Positions 40,371-58,457 are shown, counted from the first letter of the stretch. The stretch: DNA of 64,000 bases from an uncultured Christensenella sp. (GCA_949292875.1 CASFBJ010000008.1:4547-68546); one strand, 5' to 3'. The notes: generated from the letters alone by a model not told the origin. Made by a program: numbers and translations.

Positions 40371-41312
40371 ATGAGAGAAAAAAATATAGATAGTAATTAT
40401 GAAGTTTTTACAATAACAGATAATGAAGTAGGTAAAAGATTAGATGTAGTTTTATCAGATGTTTTTAGTGAACATTCAAGAAGCTACATAAAGAAGCTTA
40501 TTGATGAAAATTTTGTATTTGTAAATGAAAAATGTCAAAAAGCAGGTTATAAAGTAAAGTATGGTGATATAGTATATATAGAGTTCCCTGTAGAAGAAAC
40601 TTATAGTTTGGAGGCACAAAATATTCCTTTAGATATTGTTTATCAAGATGAAGATATTGCAGTAATAAATAAAGCAAAAGGAATGGTAGTTCATCCTGCT
40701 GTTGGTAACACGGAGGGAACTTTAGTAAACGCAATTCTGTATCATATAAAAGATTTAAGCGGAATAAATGGTGAACTCCGTCCAGGAATAGTGCATAGGA
40801 TAGATAAGGATACTACAGGACTTTTAGTTATAGCAAAAAATGATATGGCTCATAGGTCATTAAGTGAGCAAATAAAAAATAAAACTTGCAAAAGAATATA
40901 TAAAGCTTTGGTCCACGGTGCGCCACCTAATAGTGAGGGTAGAGTAGTTACTTATATAGGTAGAAACCCGAAAGATAGAAAGAAAATGGCAGTTGTAGAA
41001 GAAAATGAAGGTAGACTTGCTGTGACTAATTATAAGGTTTTAAAAAAATATGCACATTTTAGTTTAGTTGAATTTTCTTTAGAAACAGGAAGAACTCATC
41101 AAATAAGAGTGCATTGTAAATATTTAAACATTCCTATTGTAGGTGATTTTACATATGGAGCACCAAAAAATAAGTTTGGAATAGAGGGTCAACTTCTTCA
41201 TGCTTGTAAACTTATTTTACAGCATCCACGCACAAATGAAATAATGACTTTTGAAGCGAAGTTGCCTAACTTTTTTCAAGATGTTATAGATAAATTAGAG
41301 AAAACAAATTAA
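40371..41312 (+). CDS. rluD: 23S rRNA pseudouridine synthase, RluA/RluD family
   Basis: S4 domain N-terminus, catalytic HRIDKDTTGLLVIAKN, GRTHQIRVH. Confidence 0.9.
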   Translation: MREKNIDSNYEVFTITDNEVGKRLDVVLSDVFSEHSRSYIKKLIDENFVFVNEKCQKAGYKVKYGDIVYIEFPVEETYSLEAQNIPLDIVYQDEDIAVINKAKGMVVHPAVGNTEGTLVNAILYHIKDLSGINGELRPGIVHRIDKDTTGLLVIAKNDMAHRSLSEQIKNKTCKRIYKALVHGAPPNSEGRVVTYIGRNPKDRKKMAVVEENEGRLAVTNYKVLKKYAHFSLVEFSLETGRTHQIRVHCKYLNIPIVGDFTYGAPKNKFGIEGQLLHACKLILQHPRTNEIMTFEAKLPNFFQDVIDKLEKTN

Positions 41313-42406: not shown

Positions 42407-42574
42407 ATGAAAAAATACAAAATTAACTTTTATTCAAAACTTCTAAACAAAAGAATAACAAAGGTTGTGGAAGATCCAAAAAATTATACCGATGCAATTA
42501 TTCTTGAAGTGATTGAAGAACCAAGAAGCATTTATCACAGACAATTAAGAATTGTTTTGGAGGTGAATGTATGA
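42407..42574 (+). CDS. Hypothetical 55-aa protein (not in the ORF track)
   Basis: RBS ggagg 6 nt upstream. The stop overlaps the next start (ATGA). Translation begins MKKYKINFYSKLLNKRITKVVEDPKNY... Confidence 0.35.
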   Translation: MKKYKINFYSKLLNKRITKVVEDPKNYTDAIILEVIEEPRSIYHRQLRIVLEVNV

Positions 42575-43455
42575 AAATAACAAACAACTTAAAATTGCCA
42601 CAACCATTTGTTGATGCGGTTGACAAAGATTATCAATATAAAGACAAAAGGTATTCAGTTACAACACTGTTAAAACCAGTCAGGGAAATCATGTTGTTAA
42701 GAAGACACAATGATGAAATTGAATGTGATGTCAGTGATATGATTTGGGCAATTTTTGGAACAGCGGTGCATTCTGTGTTGGAAAATTCAACAGAAGGAAA
42801 ACACCTATTAAAAGAAAAATCACTTGAAATCAAAATCGGTGATTATACATTGTCAGGAAGAAGTGATTTATATAATGTGCATTCATTTACAGTTATTGAT
42901 TACAAAGTAACATCAGTTTGGAAATACATATTGAAAGAATTTGATGATTATAAAAAACAGGGTGCAATGTATGTTTATATGTTGCAAAAGTTGGGTTACA
43001 AAGCAAAAAAAGCAGAGTTTATTTTGGTTTTGAAAGATTGGCAAAAATCAAAAGCAAAGTTTGATAAAAATTATCCACAACTTCCTGTTCAAAAAGTTCA
43101 GTTCACTTTTACAGACAAAGACATGGAAGAAATTGAAAAATTTATCTTTGATAAGTTTGAACAAATAAAAGAAGCGGAACAACTTGAAGATGCAAAATTG
43201 CCATTATGTTCAGCAGAAGACAGATGGAACAGTGGTGATAAGTTTGCAGTTATGAAAAATGGAAGAAAGACCGCTTTGAGAGTGTTAGACAGTAAAGAAG
43301 AAGCAGAACAATACAAAAGCAACAATGGTGGTGATTACATTGAAACCAGGAAGGGTGAAGATAGAAAATGCCAGGATTATTGTCAATGTTGTGAGTTCTG
43401 TGAACATTACAAAAAATGTGTGAAAGATGGTGGTTCACAACCACTGCCATTTTAG
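42571..43455 (+). CDS. PD-(D/E)XK (RecB/Cas4-like) exonuclease with a C-terminal Cys cluster
   Basis: GRSDLY...VIDYKV (D...D-x-K core) and CQDYCQCCEFCEHYKKC. Positioned directly upstream of an annealase. Confidence 0.68.
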   Translation: MKITNNLKLPQPFVDAVDKDYQYKDKRYSVTTLLKPVREIMLLRRHNDEIECDVSDMIWAIFGTAVHSVLENSTEGKHLLKEKSLEIKIGDYTLSGRSDLYNVHSFTVIDYKVTSVWKYILKEFDDYKKQGAMYVYMLQKLGYKAKKAEFILVLKDWQKSKAKFDKNYPQLPVQKVQFTFTDKDMEEIEKFIFDKFEQIKEAEQLEDAKLPLCSAEDRWNSGDKFAVMKNGRKTALRVLDSKEEAEQYKSNNGGDYIETRKGEDRKCQDYCQCCEFCEHYKKCVKDGGSQPLPF

Positions 43456-43473
43456 AAAGGAGGTATCAATAAA

Positions 43474-44271
43474 ATGGAACAAAAAGAAATACGACTTTTA
43501 ACAAAAGATGACATTGAAGTTAAAGTTAAAAAAGTTTTAGATGGCAAAGCATTATTACTATTATACAAAACTGCAAGGATTGACATGGCAATACTTGATG
43601 AAGTGTTTGGTGTGTTCAACTGGTGCAATGAATACAAAGAAATCAAAGGCAACATGTATTGTGGTGTCGGTGTAAGAGAAAGTGCAGACAAAGATTTCAT
43701 TTGGAAATGGGATTGTGGCATTGAAAGCAGGGAAGATGAAGAAGGAAACCAAAAGAAAGGTGAAGCAAGTGATGCATTCAAAAGAGCATGTTTCAAAGTT
43801 GGTATTGGTAGAGAACTTTACACTGCACCTGTTATTTACATAAAAGCAGAAACAGTTGCTGATGGTAAAAAACACAAATTAAAAGACAGTTTTGCAAAAT
43901 ATACAGTCAAAGAAATTCAATACAATGAAAACAGAGAAATCACAAAATTGATTATTGTTGACAGAAAGGGTGTGCAAGTATTTCCAGTAAATAAAGTTGA
44001 AAACACACCTGCACCAAAAGAAGAAAAAAAGCAACCTGCAATCACTGGTGAGAAATTAAAAGAAAGACAACAAAGATTACAGGAAGCATTGGCAAATAGT
44101 GAAATAACACTTGAAAATGCTAAAAAATGGGCAAAAATTAAGTCAAAACAAGACATTGAACCTGAACAATTAAGTGATGATTTATTTGAAGCACTTATTC
44201 AGTCAATAACCAAACCTGAATATCAAAAGAAAAAAGAAGAAACACCACCTGATGAAGATGACATATTTTAA
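43474..44271 (+). CDS. Rad52/Sak-type single-strand annealing protein
   Basis: KGEASDAFKRACFKVGIGRELY motif typical of Rad52/22 (Sak) family phage SSAPs. Lys/Glu-rich C-terminal half ending in DEDDIF. Confidence 0.7.
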   Translation: MEQKEIRLLTKDDIEVKVKKVLDGKALLLLYKTARIDMAILDEVFGVFNWCNEYKEIKGNMYCGVGVRESADKDFIWKWDCGIESREDEEGNQKKGEASDAFKRACFKVGIGRELYTAPVIYIKAETVADGKKHKLKDSFAKYTVKEIQYNENREITKLIIVDRKGVQVFPVNKVENTPAPKEEKKQPAITGEKLKERQQRLQEALANSEITLENAKKWAKIKSKQDIEPEQLSDDLFEALIQSITKPEYQKKKEETPPDEDDIF

Positions 44272-44285
44272 GGGGTAGGTGAAAG

Positions 44286-44855
44286 ATGATTGGCAAGATT
44301 AAAGTGGGAAATCCACAATTAAAAGTAGATTATAACAACAACTATGAGATTTCTTTTCCAGTGAATAATCAATCAAAATATGCGGTTAAGCAAATTATGA
44401 ATGACCTGCAAAAGAATGAAAAAGAACTTTCAATTACTATTGATTATCAAAAAAGACACAGAACATTAGACCAAAATGCATTGATGTGGGCATTGCTTAC
44501 AGAATTTGCATATCACCAAAATGGCGGAAGAAGGGGTGGAATTACAGAAGAAGAATTGTATATCCAAATGCTTCACAAATATGGACAGGTTAAGTTCTTG
44601 TTGATAAAGGAAGAAGCAGTTGAAAGTTTGAAAAATGATTACAAAGACATTGTGGTTATCAATAAAGGTTTGAAATATCAGGGTTCTTTGTATGCAGAAG
44701 TCAAATGCATCATTGGTTCATCAAATGAAGTTTATGACACAAAAAGAATGGCAGAACTTATTGATGGAATTTTAGATGAAATGGCAAAAGCAGGAATTGA
44801 AACTGCAAATAAAAGAGATTTGGAAGAACAGTGGAGGAATTATGGAAGAAAATGA
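44286..44855 (+). CDS. NinB/Orf-like recombination mediator or HNHc_6-type protein (uncertain)
   Basis: RHRTLDQNALMWALL motif resembles the DQNA-containing NinB/HNHc_6 families. The position is between the SSAP and RusA. Confidence 0.4.
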   Translation: MIGKIKVGNPQLKVDYNNNYEISFPVNNQSKYAVKQIMNDLQKNEKELSITIDYQKRHRTLDQNALMWALLTEFAYHQNGGRRGGITEEELYIQMLHKYGQVKFLLIKEEAVESLKNDYKDIVVINKGLKYQGSLYAEVKCIIGSSNEVYDTKRMAELIDGILDEMAKAGIETANKRDLEEQWRNYGRK

Positions 44856-45270
44856 TGTTGTTATTGTATATGGTGAACCAAAAGGAAAAGCAAGACCAAG
44901 AACAGTAACAATCAATGGTTTTGTTCAAACCTTCACACCAAAACCAACAAGAGATTATGAAGCGGAAGTCAGGAAGGCATACAGGAAGCAAAATGGCAAA
45001 AAATGGAGCAAAGAATTTCCATTGAAATTGATTGTTTCTGCTTACTGTAAAATTCCAAAAAGTTTCACCAAATTAAAAAAGCAACAGGCAATAGATGGTG
45101 CAAAAAGACCTATCAAAAAACCTGATTTAGACAATATCATAAAAATCATTTTAGATGCTTTGAATGGTGTTGCTTATGAAGATGATTGCCAGGTTGTTGA
45201 AATCAAATCAAAGAAATTTTATAGCGAAGTTGAAAGAGTTGAAATCAAACTGGAGGAAGTGAAATGGTAA
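44842..45270 (+). CDS. rusA: RusA family Holliday junction resolvase
   Basis: GEPKGKARPR...TPKPTRDYE...KIPKSFTK...KKPDLDNIIKIILDALNGVAYEDDCQV. The start at 44842 follows RBS ggagga. Confidence 0.82.
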   Translation: MEENDVVIVYGEPKGKARPRTVTINGFVQTFTPKPTRDYEAEVRKAYRKQNGKKWSKEFPLKLIVSAYCKIPKSFTKLKKQQAIDGAKRPIKKPDLDNIIKIILDALNGVAYEDDCQVVEIKSKKFYSEVERVEIKLEEVKW

Positions 45271-45521
45271 AGATTTACATGGAATTAACCGCAAGAAAAA
45301 GCGGTTTAACACAAATTGGTTTTTACAAACCTGGTAACAGTTACATTCCAAATAGTTCAGTCATTCAAATTCCTTTCACTTTGACAGACAAAGAACTTGC
45401 ACCAAGTTTTGATTATGGAAAAGCACTTAAACTTGCAAATCAAACACTTCAATCACTAAACATGGGTTATTACAGAACAATAACAGTTGACTTTGTGGAG
45501 GTGCAGAATGAAAAAGTATAA
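45264..45521 (+). CDS. Hypothetical phage protein
   Basis: Overlaps the rusA stop (ATGGTAA). No family recognised. Confidence 0.4.
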   Translation: MVKIYMELTARKSGLTQIGFYKPGNSYIPNSSVIQIPFTLTDKELAPSFDYGKALKLANQTLQSLNMGYYRTITVDFVEVQNEKV

Positions 45522-45858
45522 CACAGTTAAAAGTCAGGATCTAACAGAAACAACAAGAAACAGGTTGAACAAAGTTTATTCAATGTTAAAAACATCAACA
45601 ACCAAAGAAGAAATTGTGATGAATTTAGACATCAATGAAAGGGTTGCAAGAGATTTAATATCTTACATAAAAAAGAAATTTCCAGTCATTTCAAACAGTC
45701 AAAATAAAGGTTACAGATTGGCTCTTTCAGTTGATGATTTGGAAGATGCAAAACAAACTATTGCAGAAGCAAGAAGCAGAATAAATGACTTGCAAGAAGG
45801 CATCAAACCACTTGAAGATTTTGTTGACAGAATAGGGGTGGTTTATGAAGAAAAATAG
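45508..45858 (+). CDS. Putative winged-helix DNA-binding protein
   Basis: TKEEIVMNLDINERVARDLISYIKKKFPVISNSQNKGYRLA resembles an HTH_11/WYL-type winged-helix N-domain. The start at 45508 follows RBS ggaggtg. Confidence 0.4.
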   Translation: MKKYNTVKSQDLTETTRNRLNKVYSMLKTSTTKEEIVMNLDINERVARDLISYIKKKFPVISNSQNKGYRLALSVDDLEDAKQTIAEARSRINDLQEGIKPLEDFVDRIGVVYEEK

Positions 45859-46555
45859 TTTTGTGGTGTATAGCGAATATTTAAGATATTTTGATAAATT
45901 GTCATTGATTGAAAAAGGAAAATTGATTGATGCAATGTTAAGATTTTCACAAGATTTGCCTGTTGAAGAACAAATCAAAGACATGGAAGCATCAACAGAA
46001 ATGGCATTTATGTTCATCAGCAATCAAATGAGTTTAGATGCACAAAAGTATGACCGCAGGTGCGAAACTTCAAGACAAAATGGTTCAAAAGGTGGTGCTC
46101 CAAAAGGGAATAAAAATGCAAAAAAACTTGATGAAAATGATGAAGAAAAACAACCTAAACAACCTAAAAACAACCTAAAAACAACCAAAAACAAGCCTAA
46201 TGATAATGAAAATGATAATGATAATGATTTTCAAAAAGAAAATAAAAAAAGAAAAAGCATCATCTTGGCAGATGATGACATTGAAGGTTTGATTGGTGAA
46301 AATTTTAGAGATGAAGAAGTTGCAAATAAGTTTAGAGAATTTATCCAAATGCGAAAAGCAAAAGGTGTTTCAAAGGCAGTAAGAACAAAAGCAACTTTTG
46401 ATGGGTTGGTTAGAGATTTAAGGAAGTTTGCAGGTAAAAGCAAAAAGAAAGCACTTGCAATTCTTGATAAAGGAATAAACAACTGTTGGCAGGGTTTATT
46501 TGATATTCCTGACTTTGTAGAAGATGAAGAGGAGGGTGTTCCTTATGCAAACTGA
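45845..46555 (+). CDS. Replisome-organizer-like protein (DnaD-like C-terminal region) containing internal iterons
   Basis: Position immediately upstream of DnaB. C-terminal FREFIQMRKAKG...ALAILDKGINNCWQGLF. Direct repeats lie in the middle of the gene. Confidence 0.5.
   Translation: MKKNSFVVYSEYLRYFDKLSLIEKGKLIDAMLRFSQDLPVEEQIKDMEASTEMAFMFISNQMSLDAQKYDRRCETSRQNGSKGGAPKGNKNAKKLDENDEEKQPKQPKNNLKTTKNKPNDNENDNDNDFQKENKKRKSIILADDDIEGLIGENFRDEEVANKFREFIQMRKAKGVSKAVRTKATFDGLVRDLRKFAGKSKKKALAILDKGINNCWQGLFDIPDFVEDEEEGVPYAN
46151..46200 (+). repeat. Iteron cluster: CAACCTAAA x3 perfect plus 2 degenerate copies at 9-11 bp spacing; candidate phage origin
   Basis: caacctaaa at 46151, 46160 and 46171; caaccaaaa at 46182; caagcctaa at 46192. 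Followed by a (GATAAT/GAAAAT)n AT-rich stretch at 46201-46227. Confidence 0.55.
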
Positions 46556-47936
46556 CAAGAAGTTTTACAATGCACAAGCAGAAAAAGAGATGTTGGCATG
46601 TGTGTTGGTTGACAATGTTGCGAATCCATTTGTTACAGAAGACATAATGGCAAAAGTTAAAGTTGATGACTTCTTCTGCAATGAATACAAAATTGTTTAC
46701 ACATTGATGCAAAAGTTATTCAGGGCAGGCAAAGAAATCAACATTGTTACATTGTGGGAACTTCTTGACAGACAATCACCGCCACCTTTGAAAATGGAAG
46801 AACTTGTTGCACTTGCAGATAAAATTTTGCCAAACAATTCAAATTATCAAACAACTATTGATATTTTGAAAGAGAATACCAGGTTGAGAAAATTGAAAAA
46901 TCTTGCAACACAGTTTGATGAAAAGTTAAACACCAAAGACTCTTCATTGAACATCATGAAATCAATTCAGGGTGAACTTGTAGAACTTGAAGAAAGTGAA
47001 ATTGTAAACTTTGACATTGAACATGCTGATGTCAGTTCCAAGAAGGAACTTGAAAGAATAGACCAAATAATTATGGGAAAACATGATGACTTTGGTTTGC
47101 CAACAGGTTTTCCAGTATTGGACAAAACATTGTGGGGTTTACAGAAAAGTGATTTGATTATTCTTGGTGCAAGAGCAGGTGTCGGTAAAACTGCATTTGC
47201 ATTGAATGTGTTAAACCACTGTGCAAACGAATTGAAAAAGAACTGTTTGTTTTTCAGTTTGGAAATGCCAAAAAATCAAATCATTCAAAGGTTGTATTCG
47301 CTTATTGGTGGGGTTGATAACTATGACATCAAAAAAGCAACACCGCTTGGACAACAACCTGAATTATTGAAAAAGATTGCATCAAAAATTGAAAATGGAA
47401 GTTTGTATATTGATGACACATCAAAAAACACAGTTGCATCAATGTCAATTAAGGCAAAAAGATTTCAGCGAAAAAATGGTTTAGATTTGGTTGTGATTGA
47501 TTACTTGCAATTCATCACACCAAGTCAAAGGACAGGCAACCGCTTCCAAGATGTAGGTGATATTGCAAGAGATTTGAAAGTCATGGCAAGACAGTTGAAT
47601 GTTCCAGTTATTGCACTATGTCAGTTGAATAGACAGTTGGACAATGAGAAAAGAACACCAACACTTGCAGATTTGAGAGAATCAGGCGAAATTGAAAACA
47701 ATGCAGATATAATCATGTTTTTGCATTCAACAGATAGCAAATACAACGAAAAGCGAAACATTGATTTAATTATTGGCAAGTTTAGAAGCGGACAGATGCG
47801 AGCAGTGAAAATGGAATATGAAGGCAAGTGTTTCAGGTTTAAGGAACTGGAAAAAGAACCAGTGAAGAAACCAACAACCAAACAAACTTCAATGGAATTA
47901 ACACCTATTGAAGATGATGGAAGTTTGCCATTTTAG
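46545..47936 (+). CDS. dnaB: Replicative DNA helicase (DnaB family) with an SSB-like C-terminal tip
   Basis: GFPVLDKTLWGLQKSDLIILGARAGVGKTAF (Walker A), FSLEMP, VIDYLQF, ALCQLNR. Ends ...ELTPIEDDGSLPF. Confidence 0.9.
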   Translation: MQTDKKFYNAQAEKEMLACVLVDNVANPFVTEDIMAKVKVDDFFCNEYKIVYTLMQKLFRAGKEINIVTLWELLDRQSPPPLKMEELVALADKILPNNSNYQTTIDILKENTRLRKLKNLATQFDEKLNTKDSSLNIMKSIQGELVELEESEIVNFDIEHADVSSKKELERIDQIIMGKHDDFGLPTGFPVLDKTLWGLQKSDLIILGARAGVGKTAFALNVLNHCANELKKNCLFFSLEMPKNQIIQRLYSLIGGVDNYDIKKATPLGQQPELLKKIASKIENGSLYIDDTSKNTVASMSIKAKRFQRKNGLDLVVIDYLQFITPSQRTGNRFQDVGDIARDLKVMARQLNVPVIALCQLNRQLDNEKRTPTLADLRESGEIENNADIIMFLHSTDSKYNEKRNIDLIIGKFRSGQMRAVKMEYEGKCFRFKELEKEPVKKPTTKQTSMELTPIEDDGSLPF

Positions 47937-47943
47937 TAGGAGG
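47895..47943 (+). repeat. Left copy of a 49-nt direct repeat (46/49 identical to 49764-49812)
   Basis: gaattaacacctattgaagatgatgg-NNN-tttgccattttagtaggagg covers the last 13 codons, the stop and the downstream RBS. Confidence 0.9.
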
Positions 47944-47947
47944 TAGT

Positions 47948-48385
47948 ATGAAATTCTTTGAACTTATAAAGCAATACAACAATACAAAATTCAGGTTGAA
48001 ATCAAAAATGAATGAAGAGGCAGAATTAAGGGAATTGTGTGCATTGCCAAAAACAAGTGATATGGGTGGAATGCCTGGTGCTCCAGGTTATAATGGTTCA
48101 CCTGTTGAAAAATTTGTGATTAGACTTGATGAATTAAAACAAGAACAAAACAAACTTAATTCCAAACTTGAAGACATAAGAAATGACATCATGCTTTTCA
48201 TTGACACACTTGATGATTACTTTGCAAGACAGGTTGTTGAATTAGTGGTATTTAGATTATCACCAAGACCGAACTGGAAACATGTTGCAAAAAGAATTGG
48301 TTACAGTGAAAGCGGTGCAAGAGCATTATACAAAACAAGTGCTTCAAAATTGGAAAATCTTGAATTGGAGGAATTAAAAAGATGA
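47948..48385 (+). CDS. ArpU/RinA/DUF1492-like sigma-70 region-4 type phage late transcription regulator
   Basis: C-terminal HTH-like segment ARQVVELVVFRLSPRPNWKHVAKRIGYSESGARALYKTSASKLE. Central GMPGAPG segment as in phage ArpU/RinA-type activators. Assignment from memory. Confidence 0.55.
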   Translation: MKFFELIKQYNNTKFRLKSKMNEEAELRELCALPKTSDMGGMPGAPGYNGSPVEKFVIRLDELKQEQNKLNSKLEDIRNDIMLFIDTLDDYFARQVVELVVFRLSPRPNWKHVAKRIGYSESGARALYKTSASKLENLELEELKR

Positions 48386-48729
48386 GTTACTTTGGAAATG
48401 AAAAAGAACTTGCAGATAAAGAAAGAGAAGAAGCAGAAATTGTTGCAAGTAACGAATATCAAAAAGAAGTTGATGAAGGTTCGCCACACATAGAAAGATT
48501 GGCAGATGGTTCATGGGTTGCAAGCATAGAAGTTGACATGCAGAATGCAAGTATTGATGAAGTTGAATATCAACAACAAAGATTGCTTGAAGCAATATTG
48601 GAACAAAAAGAAAAAGATGCAACTGACACATCAACCTATGTTTGCGAAACAAAAATGCTTCATTTTGTTGCATCAGGAAGAAAAACAATAATTGTCAAAT
48701 TGAGAAAGGTGCAAAATTCAAATGAATAA
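48382..48729 (+). CDS. Hypothetical acidic protein
   Basis: Start overlaps the upstream stop (ATGA). No family recognised. Confidence 0.4.
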   Translation: MSYFGNEKELADKEREEAEIVASNEYQKEVDEGSPHIERLADGSWVASIEVDMQNASIDEVEYQQQRLLEAILEQKEKDATDTSTYVCETKMLHFVASGRKTIIVKLRKVQNSNE

Positions 48730-49426
48730 AAAGAAAGTTGTAAAAATTGGAATTATCTGTTTGTGCTTAATTGCATTGTGTGTTGGGGTTTATTTCATTC
48801 TAAAACACTTTGGCATAACAGATGTTGAAACAATAAGAAGTGTTGTTGAAAGTTGTGGTGTTTGGGGTTGGTTAGTATTCATGCTTATGTTTATAACTGC
48901 CAGTGTGTTCTTGTGTTTTATACCAGGAACATCAGCATCATTCATTGTTGTTTCAATCGTATTGTTTGGTGCATGGAAGGCATTGATTATATCTTCTGTG
49001 TCAGTCATTATTGCTTCATCAATTATGTTCTTTATTGGACACACTTTTGGTGAAAAGGTGGCGGAAAAAATTGTTGGAAAAGACAGTTTACATAAAGCAC
49101 AAGAATTGATTGATGTTAAAAGCAAAATATTCTTGCCATTGATGTTTCTGTTTCCTGTTTTTCCTGATGATGCACTTTGCATGGTTGCAGGAATGACAAA
49201 AATGAAATACTGGTATTTCTTAATTGTTGTTGCAGTTTGCAGAACAATAGGTATTGCCACTATATGCTTTTTGGGTAGTGGTTTTATAAACTGGGCATCA
49301 CTATCAATTATTGAATGGTTTTGCCTGATAACATGTTGTTTGGTTTGGTTGTTTGTTATATTCAAAGCATCAAACAAAATAGAACAAAAAATTAAAAATA
49401 AAAAGGTGGAAGAAAAAGATGAATAA
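48722..49426 (+). CDS. TVP38/TMEM64 (DedA-related, SNARE-associated) family membrane protein
   Basis: Polytopic protein; LFPVFPDDALCMVAGMTKMKYWYFLIVVAVCRTIG matches the re-entrant-loop motif of the DedA/TVP38 superfamily. Confidence 0.62.
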   Translation: MNKKKVVKIGIICLCLIALCVGVYFILKHFGITDVETIRSVVESCGVWGWLVFMLMFITASVFLCFIPGTSASFIVVSIVLFGAWKALIISSVSVIIASSIMFFIGHTFGEKVAEKIVGKDSLHKAQELIDVKSKIFLPLMFLFPVFPDDALCMVAGMTKMKYWYFLIVVAVCRTIGIATICFLGSGFINWASLSIIEWFCLITCCLVWLFVIFKASNKIEQKIKNKKVEEKDE

Positions 49427-49805
49427 ATGTATTTTTATTGGAAATTTAACAAAAGATCCTGAATTGGCAACAACTTCAAGTGGTGTTACAGTGTGCAGGT
49501 TTACACTTGCAGTTCAAAGAAAATTTGCAAATGCAGATGGCGAAAAGGAAGCAGATTTTATCAACATTGTTGCTTGGCGAAAACTTGGTGAAACTTGTGG
49601 AAAATATCTTGCGAAGGGTAGAAAATGCAGTGTTACAGGTGCAATGCAAACAAGAAGTTATGATGCACAAGATGGTTCTAAAAGATATGTAACAGAAATA
49701 ATTGCAGAAGAAATTGAGTTTTTATCAGCAAAACCACAAGAAGACGGCGGTTCAGCTGATCCTGAATTAACACCTATTGAAGATGATGGTGATTTGCCAT
49801 TTTAG
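49419..49805 (+). CDS. ssb: Single-stranded DNA-binding protein
   Basis: MNKCIFIGNLTKDPEL...FTLAVQR...ADFINIVAWRKLGE...V.GAMQTRSY (OB fold). Canonical tip DDGDLPF. Confidence 0.92.
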   Translation: MNKCIFIGNLTKDPELATTSSGVTVCRFTLAVQRKFANADGEKEADFINIVAWRKLGETCGKYLAKGRKCSVTGAMQTRSYDAQDGSKRYVTEIIAEEIEFLSAKPQEDGGSADPELTPIEDDGDLPF

Positions 49806-49812
49806 TAGGAGG
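49764..49812 (+). repeat. Right copy of the 49-nt direct repeat
   Basis: Same sequence as 47895-47943 except for 3 central nt. Confidence 0.9.
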
Positions 49813-51021: not shown

Positions 51022-51288
51022 ATGAAAACAGAATATGTGTGGGTAGATAGAAACCGAAATCACTACAAGTTAGAAGACATAAGCAATTCATACTTATTAA
51101 ACATTATTAAGTTTATTTGTGATGGTGGTGGTTTTACAGATGAAATGAGTGAAAGAAAAATCAAAATGCTATTTGATGAAGCAAAAAAGAGAAATTTACA
51201 ACACAAATTTCAACTTGAAAATGCAATAAGTGCATACCATGAAAAATTAAGTTATGAATGCCAGGTGTTTTGTCCTGATTGGGAGTGA
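51022..51288 (+). CDS. Hypothetical phage protein (88 aa)
   Basis: ATG at 51022 follows RBS aaggtaggtgg. The upstream part of the track ORF overlaps the previous gene. Confidence 0.42.
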   Translation: MKTEYVWVDRNRNHYKLEDISNSYLLNIIKFICDGGGFTDEMSERKIKMLFDEAKKRNLQHKFQLENAISAYHEKLSYECQVFCPDWE

Positions 51289-51290
51289 TT

Positions 51291-52217
51291 ATGAATAATG
51301 AATTTAATGCAGATGAAATCAAAGCAAGATATACCATTTATGAGATATTAAGCAAGTATGGACTTTATCCGCAAAGAAATAACATGATTGCATGTCCATT
51401 TCACAATGAAAAGAATGCATCAATGAAGATATATGACAACAATACATTTCATTGTTTTGGTTGTGGTGCTGATGGTGATATTTTTGACTTTGTGCAAAGA
51501 ATGGAAAATTGTGATTTTATAAGAGCAATGGAAATTATCACAAATAGCACCTTTCAACCTTACATTCCAAAGAAAGAACCTGTTAAAACCAAAGTTGCAC
51601 AGAATCCACAAATGTTGAAAAACTATATCAAAAAATGTCATGACAATTTGTCAAAAACAGATTACTTCTATAAAAGGAAGTTAAACAAAGAAACACAAGA
51701 AAAGTTTTGTCTTGGTTATGATGAAAAATACAATTCTGTTGTGATTCCTTACAATAAAGAACTTACATATTATCAAAGCAGAAATGTAGAAACAAAAGCA
51801 TTTTACAAACCAAACACAGACATTGCAGGAACTGAACCATTGTTTAACCAGGAAGCATTGAAACTTGCAGATTGTGTGTTTGTTGTTGAAAGTCCTATAT
51901 GTGCATTATCAATCATGCAATATGGATACAATGCCATTGCATTATGCGGTGTGCAGGGGTGGAAGAAATTACAGAACATAGAAATAAACAAAGATTGCAA
52001 ACTTATTCTATGTTTAGACAATGATTTTGAAGGCAAAAAGGCAAGAGATAACATCATCAATGCTTTTCCTGAAAAATCAATCGCATATAACATTGCCAGT
52101 GAATGTAAAGATGCAAATGAACTTCTTATTAAAGATGAAACCAGGTTTGTAAAAAATCTTTACTTAATATCAACACTGGTGAAGAAAACATATTTTGGAG
52201 GGAATTATGAAAATTGA
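51291..52217 (+). CDS. DNA primase (CHC2 zinc finger plus Toprim)
   Basis: ACPFHNEKNASMKIYDNNTFHCFGCGADGDIFDF (CHC2). Toprim-like VFVVESPICALS ... LCLDNDFEGKKA. Confidence 0.8.
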   Translation: MNNEFNADEIKARYTIYEILSKYGLYPQRNNMIACPFHNEKNASMKIYDNNTFHCFGCGADGDIFDFVQRMENCDFIRAMEIITNSTFQPYIPKKEPVKTKVAQNPQMLKNYIKKCHDNLSKTDYFYKRKLNKETQEKFCLGYDEKYNSVVIPYNKELTYYQSRNVETKAFYKPNTDIAGTEPLFNQEALKLADCVFVVESPICALSIMQYGYNAIALCGVQGWKKLQNIEINKDCKLILCLDNDFEGKKARDNIINAFPEKSIAYNIASECKDANELLIKDETRFVKNLYLISTLVKKTYFGGNYEN

Positions 52218-52989: not shown

Positions 52990-53021
52990 AATCGCAAGTG
53001 TATTAACACTTGCAATGCTAT

Positions 53022-53804
53022 ATGCGGTTAGAACCAGGAAATGTTTACAACATGGATTGTATAGATGGCATGAAGCAATTATTGAAGCAGGGTATCACAG
53101 TTGATTGCATCATAACAGATCCACCTTACAATATAAGTGTTGAAGGCAAAGAGATTAAAAGAGATAAACCAAATACAAAAACCGCCAGGAAAACATCAAT
53201 CAAATTTGATTTTGGTGAATGGGATAAAATGGACAATGCAGAGTTTGAAAAGTTTATTGAAGAATTTGTTTCACTTGCATGTCAGTTATTAAAACCTGGA
53301 GGAGCAGTGTTGTGTTGGTTTACAAAAGAAAAAATAAGTTGGTTAGCAGATTTATTCAATAAGAATGGAATTAAAACCAAAACAATAATAACTTGGCACA
53401 AAACAAATCCAACACCACAATTTAGAATTACAAATTATCTGTCAGCAAGTGAATTTTGTTTTTATGGAATAAAAGAAGGCGGAAAATACACATTCAATTT
53501 TGAAAAGCAAAATGACATGCACAATGTGATAGATTATCCAAATGCTTCTATTTATGGCGAAACAGAGCATCCAACAGAAAAACCGCTATATATTATAAAT
53601 AAGTTGGTGCGAACACATACAAACGAAGGTGATTTAATTTTGGACTGTTTCATGGGTTCATTCACAACCGCAGTGTCTTGCCACAAATTACAAAGACAGT
53701 TTATAGGTTTTGAGAAAGATGCGAAGTTTTATGAAATGGGAAGTGCCAGGTTAAAGAAAGCACAATCACAATTAAGCATATTTGACATGGGGGTTAAGAT
53801 ATAA
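53022..53804 (+). CDS. DNA methyltransferase, beta-class (probably N6-adenine)
   Basis: Motif IV IITDPPYNI precedes motif I LILDCFMGSFTTAV. The HPTEKP motif is present. Confidence 0.85.
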   Translation: MRLEPGNVYNMDCIDGMKQLLKQGITVDCIITDPPYNISVEGKEIKRDKPNTKTARKTSIKFDFGEWDKMDNAEFEKFIEEFVSLACQLLKPGGAVLCWFTKEKISWLADLFNKNGIKTKTIITWHKTNPTPQFRITNYLSASEFCFYGIKEGGKYTFNFEKQNDMHNVIDYPNASIYGETEHPTEKPLYIINKLVRTHTNEGDLILDCFMGSFTTAVSCHKLQRQFIGFEKDAKFYEMGSARLKKAQSQLSIFDMGVKI

Positions 53805-55544: not shown

Positions 55545-55737
55545 AAAAGAAGTATGTGCAAATTTTGCACGAACTCACAAAGTTGGAAGCAAAGTGTATG
55601 GAATGAAGATATTTGATATTGCAAGAAACAATGAAGGTGAAATATTTGTCATATTGCCTTTGTATGATTTTGCTAAACACATAAATGTATTGGGTGAACA
55701 ATGTTTGGCGGATTCACAAAAAAGCAAAAAAGAATAG
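55519..55737 (+). CDS. Small ORF (72 aa) bridging the terS end and the terL start; uncertain
   Basis: Good RBS aaggag 4-5 nt upstream. Overlaps terS by 26 nt and terL by 37 nt, in a third frame. Confidence 0.3.
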   Translation: MMTQKKQSKKEVCANFARTHKVGSKVYGMKIFDIARNNEGEIFVILPLYDFAKHINVLGEQCLADSQKSKKE

Positions 55738-56972
55738 TCAGCAATATCAACAAGAGATGGTTAAAACCATTAACAATCTTCAATGGTGCAGTTAGGAGTG
55801 GTAAAACCTTTTTAACATATTTCATCATTCCATTATTGCTTGATGCTTTTGCAGGAAGCAGGGGCATCATAACAGGCAAGACACTTGGAACAATAGAAGA
55901 AAACATTTTGAAACCTATGCGGGATTTGTTTCCTGCAAATGTTGGTGATGTCAAAGTTGATGCAACAGGCAACAGGTATGTGAACCTATTTGGAACAGAT
56001 GTCAGGTTGGTTGGTGCGAATGACAAAGCAAGTGAATACAAAATCAGGGGTGCAACTTATGCATGGGCAATCTGTGATGAAGTTACAACATATCCAAAGA
56101 ATGTGTTTGCAATGCTTATGTCCAGGTTAAGTGAAGATGGTGCGGTTTGTATATGCACAACAAATCCTGATATACCTTCACACTGGTTGAAAGTTGATTA
56201 CATTGATAAGAAAGACATTGACATTGATGTTTACAACTTCACCATTGATGACAATCCAACACTTCCACCTGCTTATGTTCAACACATGAAGAACCTATAT
56301 GAAGGCACAGAGTTCTATGACAGGTTCATTCTTGGCAAGTGGGTTAGTGGAAGCGGTGCAATCTATAAGTTGTTTGTATTAAACAATGACAGATATTTGA
56401 TAGATGAACCAAAAGAAGATGAACCAAAGGTGAAATACATTGAATATGCCTGTGGTGTTGACTTTGGTGAAAATGTTTCTGCAACAGTGTTCAAACTTGT
56501 GGGGTTAAGACAGAACTTCAAAGGCATTGATATTATTGCAGAAGAAAGAATTACAGAACATGGTGATGTCAAACTATTGCAAAAACAATTCATTAACTTT
56601 TTGAAGAAATGCAAAAGTTATGGTTACAGGGTTGATTTTGCTTATTATGACAATGCACAAAAGACACTTGGTGAAAGTTTGAAAACCGCAGTTGCAAAGG
56701 AAGGAATTGCTTGCAATGTAAAACCATGTGTTAAAGATGACATTATTGAGAGAATCCACCTGGTTATTGCATTACTGGGTGCAGACATGATAAAGGTTCA
56801 CAAAAGATGTAAACATGCGGTTAAAGCATTTAATGATGCAGTATGGGCAGAAGGCACAGAAGAAAGATTGGATGAAGTCAGTGAAGTCAATGTGGTTGAT
56901 GACCTTGATGCATTTGAATATGCAATACAACACTGGAGCAATAATTTGAAGAAGGTTGCATTGTTAGAATAA
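55701..56972 (+). CDS. terL: Terminase large subunit (PBSX/Terminase_3-like)
   Basis: Walker A FNGAVRSGKTF; Walker B-like AWAICDEV; C-terminal nuclease half with ACGVDFG and DDLDAFEY. Confidence 0.9.
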   Translation: MFGGFTKKQKRIVSNINKRWLKPLTIFNGAVRSGKTFLTYFIIPLLLDAFAGSRGIITGKTLGTIEENILKPMRDLFPANVGDVKVDATGNRYVNLFGTDVRLVGANDKASEYKIRGATYAWAICDEVTTYPKNVFAMLMSRLSEDGAVCICTTNPDIPSHWLKVDYIDKKDIDIDVYNFTIDDNPTLPPAYVQHMKNLYEGTEFYDRFILGKWVSGSGAIYKLFVLNNDRYLIDEPKEDEPKVKYIEYACGVDFGENVSATVFKLVGLRQNFKGIDIIAEERITEHGDVKLLQKQFINFLKKCKSYGYRVDFAYYDNAQKTLGESLKTAVAKEGIACNVKPCVKDDIIERIHLVIALLGADMIKVHKRCKHAVKAFNDAVWAEGTEERLDEVSEVNVVDDLDAFEYAIQHWSNNLKKVALLE

Positions 56973-56987
56973 TAAACTGGAGGAATT

Positions 56988-58457
56988 ATGGAATTAGTAA
57001 AAACAGTTAGTGATTACTTACACAGAGCATTCAAAACAGACATTTCATATATAGAGTTCTTTACAAGAATAAGTGATTTCAAAGAATGGTATGAAGGTGA
57101 AACAAAATGGCATGATTACAAGATTTGGAATGGTAAGAAACGAAAGAAACAAAAACATCTTTCACTTGGTATGGCAAAAACTGCATGTGAAGACATGGCA
57201 AGTTTGCTGATGACTGAAAAGGTTGAAATTAGGTGTGCAAAAGAACCTGCAAATGCATTGTTGCAAAAAGTATTAAAAAACAACAATTTCAAAGTTATGG
57301 CAAATCAACTTGTTGAATTATCTTGTGCATTGGGAACAGGTTCTTTTGTTGTTTCAATTAAAGAAGGTTCAAATATGAACAATCTTACTGTTGATGACAT
57401 TTTGATTTCATATATTCATGGTGATTTCATTTTTCCTATAAAGTGGGATAATGGAAGAATAACAGATTGTGCCTTTGTTACTACTGGGAACAAAGATGGT
57501 GATGTTACTTATAAAGTCATGAGTTTTGTATATGATGAAAAAGCAAGAGAATACATGGAATATGTTGAAGAAGTTGATGGTGATGGCGGTGTTATAAGAA
57601 CTGGTGAAATCATTGAAGGTGTTGAACTGATTGAAGATAAAGGGCATCAATACAAAACGAGATTAAAACATTCACCATTTCAAATTATCAAACCAAACAT
57701 TGTAAACAACTTTGATAAAACAAATCCTATGGGTATGTCAATCTTTGGCAATGCAATACCTGTTCTAAAAAGCATTGATGAAATATATTCATCTTACAAA
57801 AATGAATTTAGAATGGGCAGAAAAAGAATATTTGTCAAAGCAGGGTTACAAGCAATCAGGTATGACAAAACAGATGACACCTGGATTGATTACATTGATG
57901 ACAATGAAGTTGTATATCAGCAACTTGCAGATGAGTGGGAAAACAACAAACCACCTATTTATGAAAGTAACATGACATTAAGAGTGGCAGACCATAATAG
58001 TGCTATGGAAATGCAACTTAATGTGTTTTCAAGAAAGGTTGGACTTGGTGAAAACTTTTACACATTCAACAATGGTTCAATTTCAACTGCAACACAAATA
58101 ATTAGTTCAAATTCTAGTTTATTTAGGAATATAAGAAAGCATGAATTAGTGCTTGAACCTGCACTTATTGGACTAGCAGAAGCAATTTGTGAGTATTTGA
58201 AGGTTGATCCTGGTGAAATTACTGTTGACTTTGATGACAGTATTATCATTGACACAGAAAGCGAAAAGAACCAAGCAATGCAGGAATATCAAGCAGGTTT
58301 AATTGATAAGGTTGAATATTTTGTCAAAACACAAAAGATGACAAGAAACCAAGCAAAAAAACATGTTGATGAAATGACAGCAACAGGCACAATGATGGAA
58401 GCAGAAGACATCTTGGCAGAAAAATATAGTGAAGAAATGGGAGGAATGCATGAGTAA
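56988..58457 (+). CDS. Portal protein
   Basis: 489 aa, immediately after terL. SPP1 gp6-like size and acidic C-terminus. Confidence 0.8.
   Translation: MELVKTVSDYLHRAFKTDISYIEFFTRISDFKEWYEGETKWHDYKIWNGKKRKKQKHLSLGMAKTACEDMASLLMTEKVEIRCAKEPANALLQKVLKNNNFKVMANQLVELSCALGTGSFVVSIKEGSNMNNLTVDDILISYIHGDFIFPIKWDNGRITDCAFVTTGNKDGDVTYKVMSFVYDEKAREYMEYVEEVDGDGGVIRTGEIIEGVELIEDKGHQYKTRLKHSPFQIIKPNIVNNFDKTNPMGMSIFGNAIPVLKSIDEIYSSYKNEFRMGRKRIFVKAGLQAIRYDKTDDTWIDYIDDNEVVYQQLADEWENNKPPIYESNMTLRVADHNSAMEMQLNVFSRKVGLGENFYTFNNGSISTATQIISSNSSLFRNIRKHELVLEPALIGLAEAICEYLKVDPGEITVDFDDSIIIDTESEKNQAMQEYQAGLIDKVEYFVKTQKMTRNQAKKHVDEMTATGTMMEAEDILAEKYSEEMGGMHE

Follow-up and report, generated by a model that had tools for sequence, protein, structure and literature searches.

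SSB-type C-terminal tips on the replicative helicase and recombination enzymes of a prophage from a gut Clostridia bacterium

We analysed a stretch of DNA of 64,000 nucleotides (the window) that contains a prophage of an uncultured gut Clostridia bacterium, represented by a metagenome-assembled genome, in which four plus-strand genes within 7.2 kb encode proteins with C-termini that are SSB-type to varying degrees. One of these genes (42571..43455) encodes a Cas4/RecE/lambda-Exo-like PD-(D/E)XK exonuclease with a C-terminal Cys cluster (phrog_2139 exonuclease, E=2e-61), the translation of which ends in DGGSQPLPF. It is followed by the gene of a Rad52/Sak-like single-strand annealing protein (43474..44271) ending in PPDEDDIF, matched by Pfam Rad52_Rad22 (21.3 bits, the cut-off being 20.3 bits), by phrog_14970 (E=7e-54) and by the Erf-like SSAP family phrog_1097. 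A DnaB-type replicative helicase (46524..47936; Pfam DnaB_C PF03796, E=6e-78; DnaB N-terminal domain PF00772, E=2e-12) ends in MELTPIEDDGSLPF, with ELTPIEDDGSLPF as its tip, and a phage SSB (49419..49805; Pfam SSB, E=8e-34; phrog_44) ends in PELTPIEDDGDLPF. All four C-termini, which had been reported in a preliminary description of the locus, stand in the translations. When window ORFs of at least 50 amino acids were searched for a PF or [DE][ILVM]F end, the likely genes that matched were these four only. One further match was an antisense ORF inside the annealase gene.

Between the annealase and helicase genes lie plus-strand genes for a NinB/Orf-family recombination mediator (44286..44855; Pfam NinB, E=2e-6; phrog_72) and for a DUF6291 protein (45845..46555; Pfam DUF6291, E=5e-19; a weak match to the primosomal phrog_6451). 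The latter, probably a replisome organiser or initiator, is encoded by a gene overlapping that of the helicase, and a DUF6291 gene lies directly 5' of tail-bearing helicases in related loci L111-L113, L115-L118 and L122. Farther downstream, a plus-strand gene (51279..52217) encodes a DnaG-type primase with a CHC2 zinc ribbon and a Toprim domain (Pfam Zn_ribbon_DnaG, E=7e-18; Toprim_2, E=2e-11). It ends in YFGGNYEN, without a tip, and no C-terminal helicase-binding domain was matched in it by Pfam. We found no DNA polymerase gene in the early region between 42.2 and 55.7 kb, no match to an AAA+ helicase loader family among the window proteins searched, and no AAA+ loader on record in 13 tail-helicase loci. 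No tail of the host's own SSB was seen in the window.

The true start of the helicase is probably at 46545, which gives a protein of 463 amino acids. Its AlphaFold model comprises an N-terminal domain, a linker helix and a RecA fold, and the folded core reaches up to residue ~441. Residues 442-470 (nt 47847-47933) form a 29-residue extension with no secondary structure and a pLDDT of 55-61. As modelled, this C-terminal extension is disordered and carries the tip at its end, in the same order of folded core, disordered linker and tip as in SSB. The protein ends in EDDGSLPF followed by the stop codon, placing an acidic run and LPF at the extreme C-terminus. Among the 62 nearest helicase homologues (98-38% identity), 55 have an acidic-xPF end; in alignment A1, P469 and F470 are invariant and the preceding linker columns vary. 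In a set of 56 tail-bearing helicases, L stands at position -3 in 98%, P at -2 in 100% and F at -1 in 100%, and positions -10 to -4 hold a mean of 3.2 acidic residues versus 3.8 in 49 phage SSBs. The resulting consensus is a unit of ~12 residues, E-L-x-P-I-[DE]-D-D-x-L-P-F. Four homologues are without the tip (examples are an end in GGSLPFEGDLLY and a truncation at LIPIN), and from their sequences they look like products of decay. By the evidence of these homologues, a large helicase clade has the tail from its common ancestor. The conservation of the tail across that clade suggests that it gives mobile elements access to the proteins by which host SSB is normally read. An acidic xPF end was found on 0/70 cellular DnaBs.

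The tips of the exonuclease and annealase resemble that of SSB less closely. The AlphaFold model of the exonuclease (pLDDT 89, with residues 288-294 below 50) matches 4ic1 Cas4 (SSO0001), 3h4r RecE and lambda Exo in Foldseek, and the last 9 residues (nt 43426-43452) form a flexible tail with LPF at its end. The LPF is preceded by D-G-G-S-Q-P, without an acidic run, and 23 tail-bearing exonuclease homologues have a mean of 1.26 acidic residues versus 3.8 in SSBs. With the acidic run missing, this tip may be read differently or weakly. In the annealase, the acidic tail (nt 44245-44268) ends in D-E-D-D-I-F, which has an acidic run and a terminal Phe without the Pro of an acidic run plus [IL]-P-F. 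An acidic D-x-F end was present in 11/19 of the closest annealase homologues, and in close relatives the tip was lost or displaced (DDDILN in L001, QDDITG in L112 and L113, and also DDDIFD). More distant family members have an xPF end in 23/101 cases, a true D-D-[LI]-P-F, and in 18 annealase homologues [LIMVET]PF is followed by 1-6 extra residues, which fits poorly with a free terminal carboxylate being strictly required. Lacking Pro and poorly kept, the annealase tip, too, may have a different or weak reading. Scored over homologues as had been proposed, tips were retained in the helicase (55/62 acidic-xPF) and in the exonuclease (xLPF in 12/12 of the closest), but not in close relatives of the annealase. 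The preliminary description had proposed for the four proteins a distributed SSB-tail mimicry. Conserved SSB-type tips do occur on non-SSB proteins, but four equal tips overstate the case: judged by sequence, the helicase alone copies the full SSB tail, and the exonuclease and annealase tips are weaker.

The phage SSB consists of an OB fold (residues 1-102), a short linker and a canonical Firmicute-type tip, ELTPIEDDGDLPF. The tail of the helicase is identical to that of this co-resident SSB at 12/13 residues, and the same codon is used at 11/12 residues common to both tails (P=0.003 given module codon usage). A repeat search identified two plus-strand copies of a 49-nt direct repeat (family D2; 47895..47943 and 49764..49812) that are 94% identical. 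They comprise the tip codons of the helicase and of the SSB, respectively, each followed by the stop codon and the next gene's RBS. Because the repeat extends past the stop codon, it points to DNA-level exchange between the two tails. The copies bracket a 1.87-kb cassette (a regulator, an unknown ORF, a VTT/DedA membrane protein and the SSB), which is absent 3' of the helicase in L114, L115, L117 and L119. Tails of helicases and co-resident SSBs were more alike than shuffled pairings in a set of only 10 genomes (p=0.013; p=0.048 without L111). The tail DNA of the two genes has diverged in L112, L117 and L122 (30/57 to 34/57 nt). In L122 the two tail peptides match despite many synonymous differences, suggesting a constraint at the peptide level.

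Could such ends be chance, that is, unrelated C-termini with a terminal F, or artefacts created by frameshifts? An LPF end occurs on 0.38% of non-SSB ORFs (3991 unique ORFs of at least 100 amino acids from related viral loci, those with a phmmer match to SSB being left out), and the chance estimate for at least two LPF ends among 15 module proteins is P ~0.0014. As the preliminary description had supposed, the tip is unusual on non-SSB proteins: SSB is its sole carrier in four cultured Firmicute phages (SPP1, D6E, Javan6 and ANDSL2_ph1), and counts across 159 related viral loci were 1/77 for exonucleases, 4/72 for annealases, 2/15 for helicases and 49/70 for SSBs. The annealase DDIF is a loose match that varies among relatives, as chance would allow. 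The same tails recur in independent assemblies (L032, which is 100% identical, L111, L001, L112 and L113) and are conserved in dozens of homologues; they are no assembly artefact, and an origin in frameshift or stop errors is not borne out. Chance or artefact was rejected for the helicase and exonuclease, the tips of which are conserved in homologues, and we hold it to be highly improbable overall. These comparisons support the tips as conserved, selected C-terminal motifs of SSB type on non-SSB proteins. A recombination by-product is quite unlikely as well. On that account, tail-coding DNA and the following RBS serve as a short conserved joint for module exchange, and the helicase owes its tail to earlier joins, the tail itself having hardly any function. 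It would accommodate the repeat running into the RBS, a codon identity above codon-bias expectation, and the cassette between the repeats. A neutral remnant, however, would not hold L-P-F at 98-100%, and the tail persists in helicase homologues as distant as 38% identity, also in genomes in which helicase and SSB tail DNA has diverged or the locus is without an SSB. Exchange thus accounts for the identity of the tail DNA in this lineage, not for the persistence of the motif.

The main rival is a degradation tag: the C-terminal LPF would be read by host ClpXP, possibly via an adaptor, and joint turnover of helicase, exonuclease and SSB would limit activity in lysogens or time the lytic programme. 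ClpX control of phage replication proteins is a known theme, as for lambda O and MuA. All three proteins end in LPF, and the likeness of the exonuclease to SSB is limited to LPF, which suits a tripeptide degron. The identical terminal tripeptide is at work in a Firmicute, Streptococcus mutans, with its SsbA/SsbB LPF degron: the last three residues of UA159 SsbA, LPF, suffice for degradation by ClpXP, and GFP-LPF is degraded (PMC5143411). This recognition is reported to be strain-specific in S. mutans and not seen in other bacteria (PMC5143411). The helicase unit, at ~12 residues, is much longer than a mere three residues and corresponds to the interaction tail of SSB. A degron also fails to explain why nearly all carriers are proteins of DNA replication and recombination, and we consider it unlikely. 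Self-regulation appears rather unlikely. Here the acidic tail would fold back as a DNA mimic on the protein's own DNA-binding surface, or onto the OB fold of the phage SSB, gating DNA binding or helping to displace SSB from the strand that the helicase must encircle. There is precedent in T7 gp2.5, T4 gp32 and E. coli SSB, each of which has an acidic tail known to sit in the protein's own DNA-binding cleft. For gp2.5 this is mentioned in passing in PMC12339929. The helicase tail, flexible and 29 residues in length, would be long enough. But charge mimicry would not call for an L-P-F that is invariant at the very end of the protein, the tail of the exonuclease is hardly acidic, and L114 and L119 have no phage SSB in the locus to act on.

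We favour, with a probability of about 0.6, the reading that the tips are a portable SSB-C-terminus docking motif that would plug phage enzymes into SSB-reading pockets. The SSB C-terminus is a hub recruiting PriA, RecG, RecQ, DnaE, RecJ, RecO and others. In B. subtilis its interactome includes PriA, DnaE, RecJ, RecO and RecQ (PMC3000357). The tips, most fully that of the helicase, have in common with the bacterial SSB C-terminus (D-D-D-[IL]-P-F after a disordered linker) the extreme C-terminal position, the acidic run plus LPF and the linker-plus-tip architecture, together with a Firmicute flavour, P-I-[DE] before LPF; phage SSBs end in TIDINESDLPF (SPP1), PIDIDDFDNLPF (D6E) and PMDISDDDLPF (Javan6). 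With a terminal Phe whose carboxylate is free, and with the Pro, the hydrophobic residue and the acidic run before it, a tip would fit SSB-tail pockets, and the phage enzymes could be drawn to SSB's partners without being SSB. The difference from SSB lies in the carrier: the bacterial tip sits on an OB-fold SSB, whereas here the motif sits on a DnaB helicase, a Cas4-like exonuclease and a Rad52-like annealase; valency would differ as well, SSB being a tetramer and the helicase presumably a hexamer.

The preliminary description knew of no replicative helicase with an SSB-type tail, which was incomplete: the acidic tails of the T7 gp4 helicase and the gp2.5 SSB bind the same basic patches of the T7 DNA polymerase gp5 (PMC12593628, PMC12339929). 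The C-terminal Phe of gp2.5 is essential, and a DTDF peptide represents the gp4 tail in PDB 6P7E (PMC12339929). At the T7 fork the polymerase faces the helicase's C-terminal end, and loss of the tail reduces processivity from 17 kb to ~5 kb (PMC12593628). By analogy, this shared polymerase site is the closest counterpart. In both systems the replicative helicase and SSB of one phage have a common type of tail, acidic and with an aromatic residue at the C-terminus, and the ring helicase bears it on its C-terminal face. However, gp2.5 is not a bacterial-type SSB, the T7 tail is not D-D-[IL]-P-F, and gp4 is a helicase-primase whereas the DnaB-type helicase here has no primase fused to it. In T7 the receptor is a polymerase of the phage itself; with no polymerase gene in the early region of this prophage, any receptor would have to come from the host or be some other protein of the phage. 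Tail-bearing helicases also occur in L114 and L119, where neither an SSB nor an annealase was called, and in L290 the exonuclease ends in GGELPF and the annealase in NGSLPF with neither a helicase nor an SSB in the locus. Such tails without a phage SSB point to host or other conserved receptors.

Candidate receptors, proposed by analogy, are host proteins such as PriA or DnaE, or the phage Orf/NinB protein. We regard the latter as a candidate for a reader of SSB-type tips encoded by the phage itself, since YbcN, a member of the Orf family, binds E. coli SSB and binds SSB C-terminal mutants less (PMC4118853). On the helicase ring, six flexible tails would extend from the RecA-domain (C-terminal) face. 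Given that neither a polymerase gene nor an AAA+ loader was detected in what was searched, the favoured role is that the tail tethers or loads the phage helicase via host SSB-tail readers, of which DnaE and PriA are known in B. subtilis, much as the gp4 tail acts on the polymerase site that the gp2.5 tail also uses. The weaker tips might place the exonuclease and annealase on the same hub, or might alternatively dock these enzymes to each other or to Orf/NinB. Lambda Red likewise has an exonuclease, an annealase, an Orf/NinB protein and an SSB in one recombination module. The pocket of the Red-beta C-terminal domain takes Phe94 of lambda Exo, and an overlapping position for SSB Phe177 was proposed (PMC6393309). 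The Exo Phe is internal, however, and not part of a C-terminal SSB-like tip; the lambda annealase reads a tail whereas the annealase here carries one, and it is Rad52-like rather than of the Red-beta/RecT family.

In metagenomes, PI[DE]DDxx[LF]PF followed by a stop codon was also found at the ends of HUH-Rep/SF3 helicases; the 29 non-SSB carriers included 17 matches to SF3 RNA_helicase, 11 to Viral_Rep and 4 to Rep_OBD. We count these as convergence, the motif recurring on a second helicase superfamily. More tentatively, and with rather less than even confidence, we suggest that Firmicute mobile elements have repeatedly captured the host SSB tip onto their own replicative helicases (DnaB-type SF4 in prophages, HUH-Rep/SF3 in small replicons) and onto some recombination enzymes, which the host primosome or polymerase (e.g. 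PriA, DnaE) would then read as 'SSB'. Gene conversion from time to time would hold the tails within a genome alike. If this is true, helicases could be recruited to foreign DNA without a loader and be coupled there to the polymerase, and host SSB could face competition for its interactome.

Bacterial chromosome gives way, within the window, to a prophage whose early region begins near 42.2 kb. An ORF at 40371-41312 looks by eye like an RluD-type pseudouridine synthase. The prophage genes recognised, all on the forward strand, encode an exonuclease (42571-43455), a Rad52-like annealase (43474-44271), NinB/Orf (44286-44855), RusA (44776-45270), a DUF6291 protein (45845-46555), a DnaB helicase (46524-47936), a regulator-like protein (47948-48385), a VTT/DedA membrane protein (48722-49426; Pfam VTT_dom, E=7e-20), SSB (49419-49805), a DnaG-type primase (51279-52217), a methylase (53010-53804), a terminase (55701-56972) and an SPP1-type portal (56988-58457). 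The VTT/DedA gene lies inside the replication module between helicase and SSB, an odd location for a membrane protein; it overlaps the ssb start and is kept in the related loci L111, L112 and L113. L111 and L112 are the closest of the syntenic loci, and upstream of the same module both encode a reverse transcriptase (RVT_1) together with an rve-type integrase (1-772 and 4288-5334 in L111; 1-793 and 4335-5384 in L112). Neither gene was seen at the matching position of the window, where host-looking ORFs are found instead. L112 also has an Acb2/Tad1-hairpin Pfam match between methylase and terminase (17127-17357); Acb2/Tad1 is an anti-CBASS/anti-Thoeris sponge family.

The preliminary description had reported SSB-type C-terminal tips on exonuclease, annealase, helicase and SSB, and a re-reading of the translations reproduced the four termini exactly. 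Sequencing error as their source is excluded because the same ends occur in independent assemblies (L032, L111, L001, L112 and L113); in L032, a contig of 'Clostridia bacterium RGIG8962, water deer rectum', the helicase C-terminus is 100% identical. Apart from these four, no likely gene among the window's ORFs (50 aa or longer) has a PF or [DE][ILVM]F end. Of the host genes in the window, only the 1193-aa ORF 13998-17579, presumably RNA polymerase beta', closes with an acidic stretch and F (...EEMLEEEIDF), which is probably a coincidence.

A survey of homologues upheld the tip most broadly for the helicase. An acidic-xPF end was found in 55 of its 62 nearest homologues (98-38% identity); the other seven comprise one xPF end, two acidic D-x-F ends and four with none of these, which look like decayed tails, judging by endings such as ...GGSLPFEGDLLY and a truncation at ...LIPIN. 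The next 58 homologues (33-37% identity) include 10 with longer Pro/acid-rich tails of the type ...DITDIF or ...DDELF, and the remaining 48 end directly after the RecA fold, like cellular DnaBs. The latter, which made up the bulk of what the genome-contig scan returned, served as the negative control, and none of 70 cellular-type DnaBs from reference genomes had an acidic xPF end. C-terminal extensions ending in F do occur on several cellular-type DnaBs, of which three come from Bacteroidia MAGs (L110, from a Bacteroidales MAG, L078 and L105; ends in this group include ...ANMQDVPF, ...FTNPEF and ...GANNEF); they may represent a weak form of the tip on chromosomal proteins, or have nothing to do with it.

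In the helicase alignment, P469 and F470 are invariant, L468 is almost so and the linker is variable; the consensus of 56 tails reads E-L-x-P-I-[DE]-D-D-x-L-P-F. In the AlphaFold model the folded part ends at about residue 441, and residues 442-470 lack secondary structure (pLDDT 55-61). With this conserved extension, the helicase repeats the layout of SSB, in which a folded core is followed by a disordered linker and the tip. Although the longest ORF starts at 46524, homologues are 455-465 aa long and the helicase gene of relatives overlaps the upstream gene by 11 nt, which points to the ATG at 46545 (MQTDKKFY..., 463 aa) as the true start. A tblastn search of cultured phages with the last 70 helicase residues gave no match, and the full protein had no cultured relative above 35% identity; therefore, no model phage carries this helicase clade. 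A search of JGI metagenomes with the exact tail DNA, ACACCTATTGAAGATGATGGNNNNTTGCCATTTTAG, gave no match. A 32-column profile built from both tails of the window, too short for a census, returned only 2 marginal, repetitive matches from 1.84 billion representative proteins. Scanning viral contigs with a single protein yielded 2 loci only, so that alignment-based scans were needed.

The tips of the exonuclease and annealase are weaker than that of the helicase. xLPF is the ending of all 12 closest exonuclease homologues (62% identity or more) and of 11 of 108 others; the preceding residues are N/G-rich, not acidic (consensus N-D-G-G-G-E-L-P-F). The exonuclease model is confident (pLDDT 89) with its last 7-9 residues disordered, and it matched Cas4 SSO0001, RecE and lambda Exo in a fold search, on which its placement depends, since neither the exonuclease profile nor the annealase profile had a sequence match in the PDB. 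The annealase ending noted earlier held less well: PPDEDDIF is common to 11 of the 19 closest homologues and the rest end in DDDILN, DDDIFD or QDDITG. True D-D-[LI]-P-F-type tips end 23 of 101 more distant Rad52-like annealases. In 18 of 120 homologues the motif stands 1-6 residues short of the end, [LIMVET]PF being followed by extra residues as in DADLPFSVRG, DEDLPFGG and VETPFDVGD (proteins P0169, P0171, P0177, P0181 and P0231-P0234 are among them), an arrangement one would not expect if the terminal carboxylate had to be free. In both families, then, tips have repeatedly been gained and lost.

Such tips are rare on non-SSB proteins of other phages. In 159 viral loci gathered through annealase and exonuclease alignments, they were carried by 1 of 77 exonucleases, 4 of 72 annealases, 2 of 15 helicases and 49 of 70 SSBs. 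SPP1, D6E, Javan6 and ANDSL2_ph1 have an LPF or VPF end on SSB only; in SPP1, the G40P helicase, G35P RecT and G34.1P exonuclease are without it. Other tip-bearing ORFs in the viral loci were not counted as non-SSB carriers, since most had SSB-like PHROG or weak DUF669 matches, or none. Proteins of 112-126 aa with DDLPF-type tips lie upstream of DUF6291 and helicase genes (L117:3259-3612, L115:8870-9211, L122:5472-5816, L123:8813-9151 and L121:8130-8510). They have no Pfam or PHROG match but share, by eye, the pattern ...VNV.VW.RK...KKGD.V...G.F...Y.SL.AD.I; we rejected them as a new carrier family since they look like minimal OB-fold SSBs. They are probably divergent SSBs and may form an unrecognised phage SSB family.

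A scan of viral contigs and metagenomes for DNA encoding PI[DE]DDxx[LF]PF followed by a stop codon recovered the tail on other helicases. In viral contigs, 47 unique proteins had this end, 38 of them SSBs and 9 others, including a 349-aa protein with Rep_OBD and SF3 helicase domains (L337). Metagenomes gave at least 108 unique proteins, including at least 63 SSBs; among the matches listed, further carriers were a single full-length DnaB and numerous proteins 270-400 aa long. Pfam matches of 29 non-SSB carriers among the matches listed (17 SF3 'RNA_helicase', 11 Viral_Rep, 4 Rep_OBD, 1 SpoVG and 1 DUF3127) indicate that the full Firmicute SSB tail also ends predicted HUH-Rep/SF3 helicases. We read its presence on unrelated replicative helicases as probable convergent acquisition. 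HUH-Rep plus SF3 proteins of about 320-390 aa ending ...EL[IV]PIEDDGSLPF are encoded at L435:1767-2792, L430:5195-6280, L377:2100-3083, L388:2632-3594 and L337:149-1198, and by two tail-bearing ORFs in L446. In L435, L446, L430, L388 and L377 the Rep gene follows, in order, a ...VSMLKRARQ-ended protein, a membrane protein that begins MEKYFMYGGAG and is about 275 aa long, and sometimes a small ORF.

We consider the tips to be, with a probability of roughly 0.6, a portable SSB-C-terminus docking motif. One rival is chance. In a background of 3991 unique ORFs (100 aa or longer) drawn from related viral loci, 0.38% of those without a phmmer match to SSB had an LPF end, which gives P ~0.0014 for two or more among 15 module proteins. 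Another rival is a neutral recombination joint. The helicase and SSB tails do form part of a 49-nt direct repeat (copies at 47895-47943 and 49764-49812, 94% identical), the strongest in the module, which runs past the stop codon into the RBS of the next gene. The same codon is used at 11 of 12 shared residues against 6.25 expected (P=0.003), and across ten genomes helicase tails resembled co-resident SSB tails more than shuffled pairings did (p=0.013; p=0.048 without the near-duplicate L111). In L122, the two tail peptides nearly match (ELEPIEDDGLPF and ELEPIDDDGLPF) despite many synonymous differences. These patterns suggest that occasional conversion and peptide-level constraint both act on the tails. 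Because the tail is ancestral to the helicase clade, the repeat reflects homogenisation of two existing tails rather than recent origin. The repeat also brackets a 1.87-kb cassette (regulator-like gene, unknown ORF, VTT/DedA gene and most of ssb), which is absent downstream of the helicase in several relatives (L114, L115, L117 and L119); recombination between the copies would delete it, while the helicase would stay intact and end in a tail derived from SSB. Two further rivals concern function: LPF could serve as a ClpXP degron (PMC5143411), or the tail could fold back and regulate the protein's own DNA binding.

Other loci and published systems give clues to a putative receptor. The tail-bearing helicases of L114 and L119 stand in loci where neither a phage SSB nor an annealase was called, and the L290 locus has an LPF-tipped exonuclease and annealase pair with neither helicase nor SSB. 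These loci favour a host protein, or some other conserved one, as the receptor. No AAA+ loader family was matched among the window proteins searched, and none is on record in 13 tail-helicase loci; where identified, the constant helicase neighbour is a gene of the DUF6291 or Phage_rep_org_N family that overlaps the start of the helicase gene. YbcN, a member of the Orf family, binds SSB, and binds SSB C-terminal mutants more weakly (PMC4118853). A pocket in the Red-beta C-terminal domain takes Phe94 of lambda Exo and also, as its authors propose, Phe177 of SSB (PMC6393309).

The nearest mechanistic precedent for a tail on both helicase and SSB is T7. Its acidic gp4 helicase tails bind basic patches on gp5 polymerase (PMC12593628, PMC12339929), and the gp2.5 SSB tail, with an essential Phe at its end, uses the same front basic patch as the gp4 tail, which is represented by a DTDF peptide in PDB 6P7E (PMC12339929). 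Unlike T7, the prophage has no polymerase of its own in the region searched (no DNA polymerase gene found, 42.2-55.7 kb), which argues that the putative receptor is probably a host protein, with DnaE or PriA as leading guesses, or phage Orf/NinB. In the literature we found no exonuclease, annealase or helicase (DnaB-type or Rep) described as carrying a bacterial-type SSB tip, which is weak evidence given incomplete literature coverage that leaves out most subscription journals; the principle itself is already known from T7 and the SSB hub.

The docking hypothesis is directly testable with 13-residue peptides such as ELTPIEDDGSLPF, and with the exonuclease (KDGGSQPLPF) and annealase (TPPDEDDIF) ends. 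If the tips bind as proposed, these elements would borrow one peptide already recognised by many host replication and repair proteins, explaining how small replicons, and phages without a polymerase, couple a foreign helicase to the host replisome. The principle seen in T7, where helicase and SSB share a single tail type, would then extend to helicases of the DnaB and SF3 types and to the hub formed by bacterial SSB. Such binding would also bear on recombineering, where compatibility between annealase and host SSB tail limits portability, and on anti-phage systems sensing phage SSB or recombinases, and would provide a simple sequence signature to predict the host dependence and host range of replication modules.
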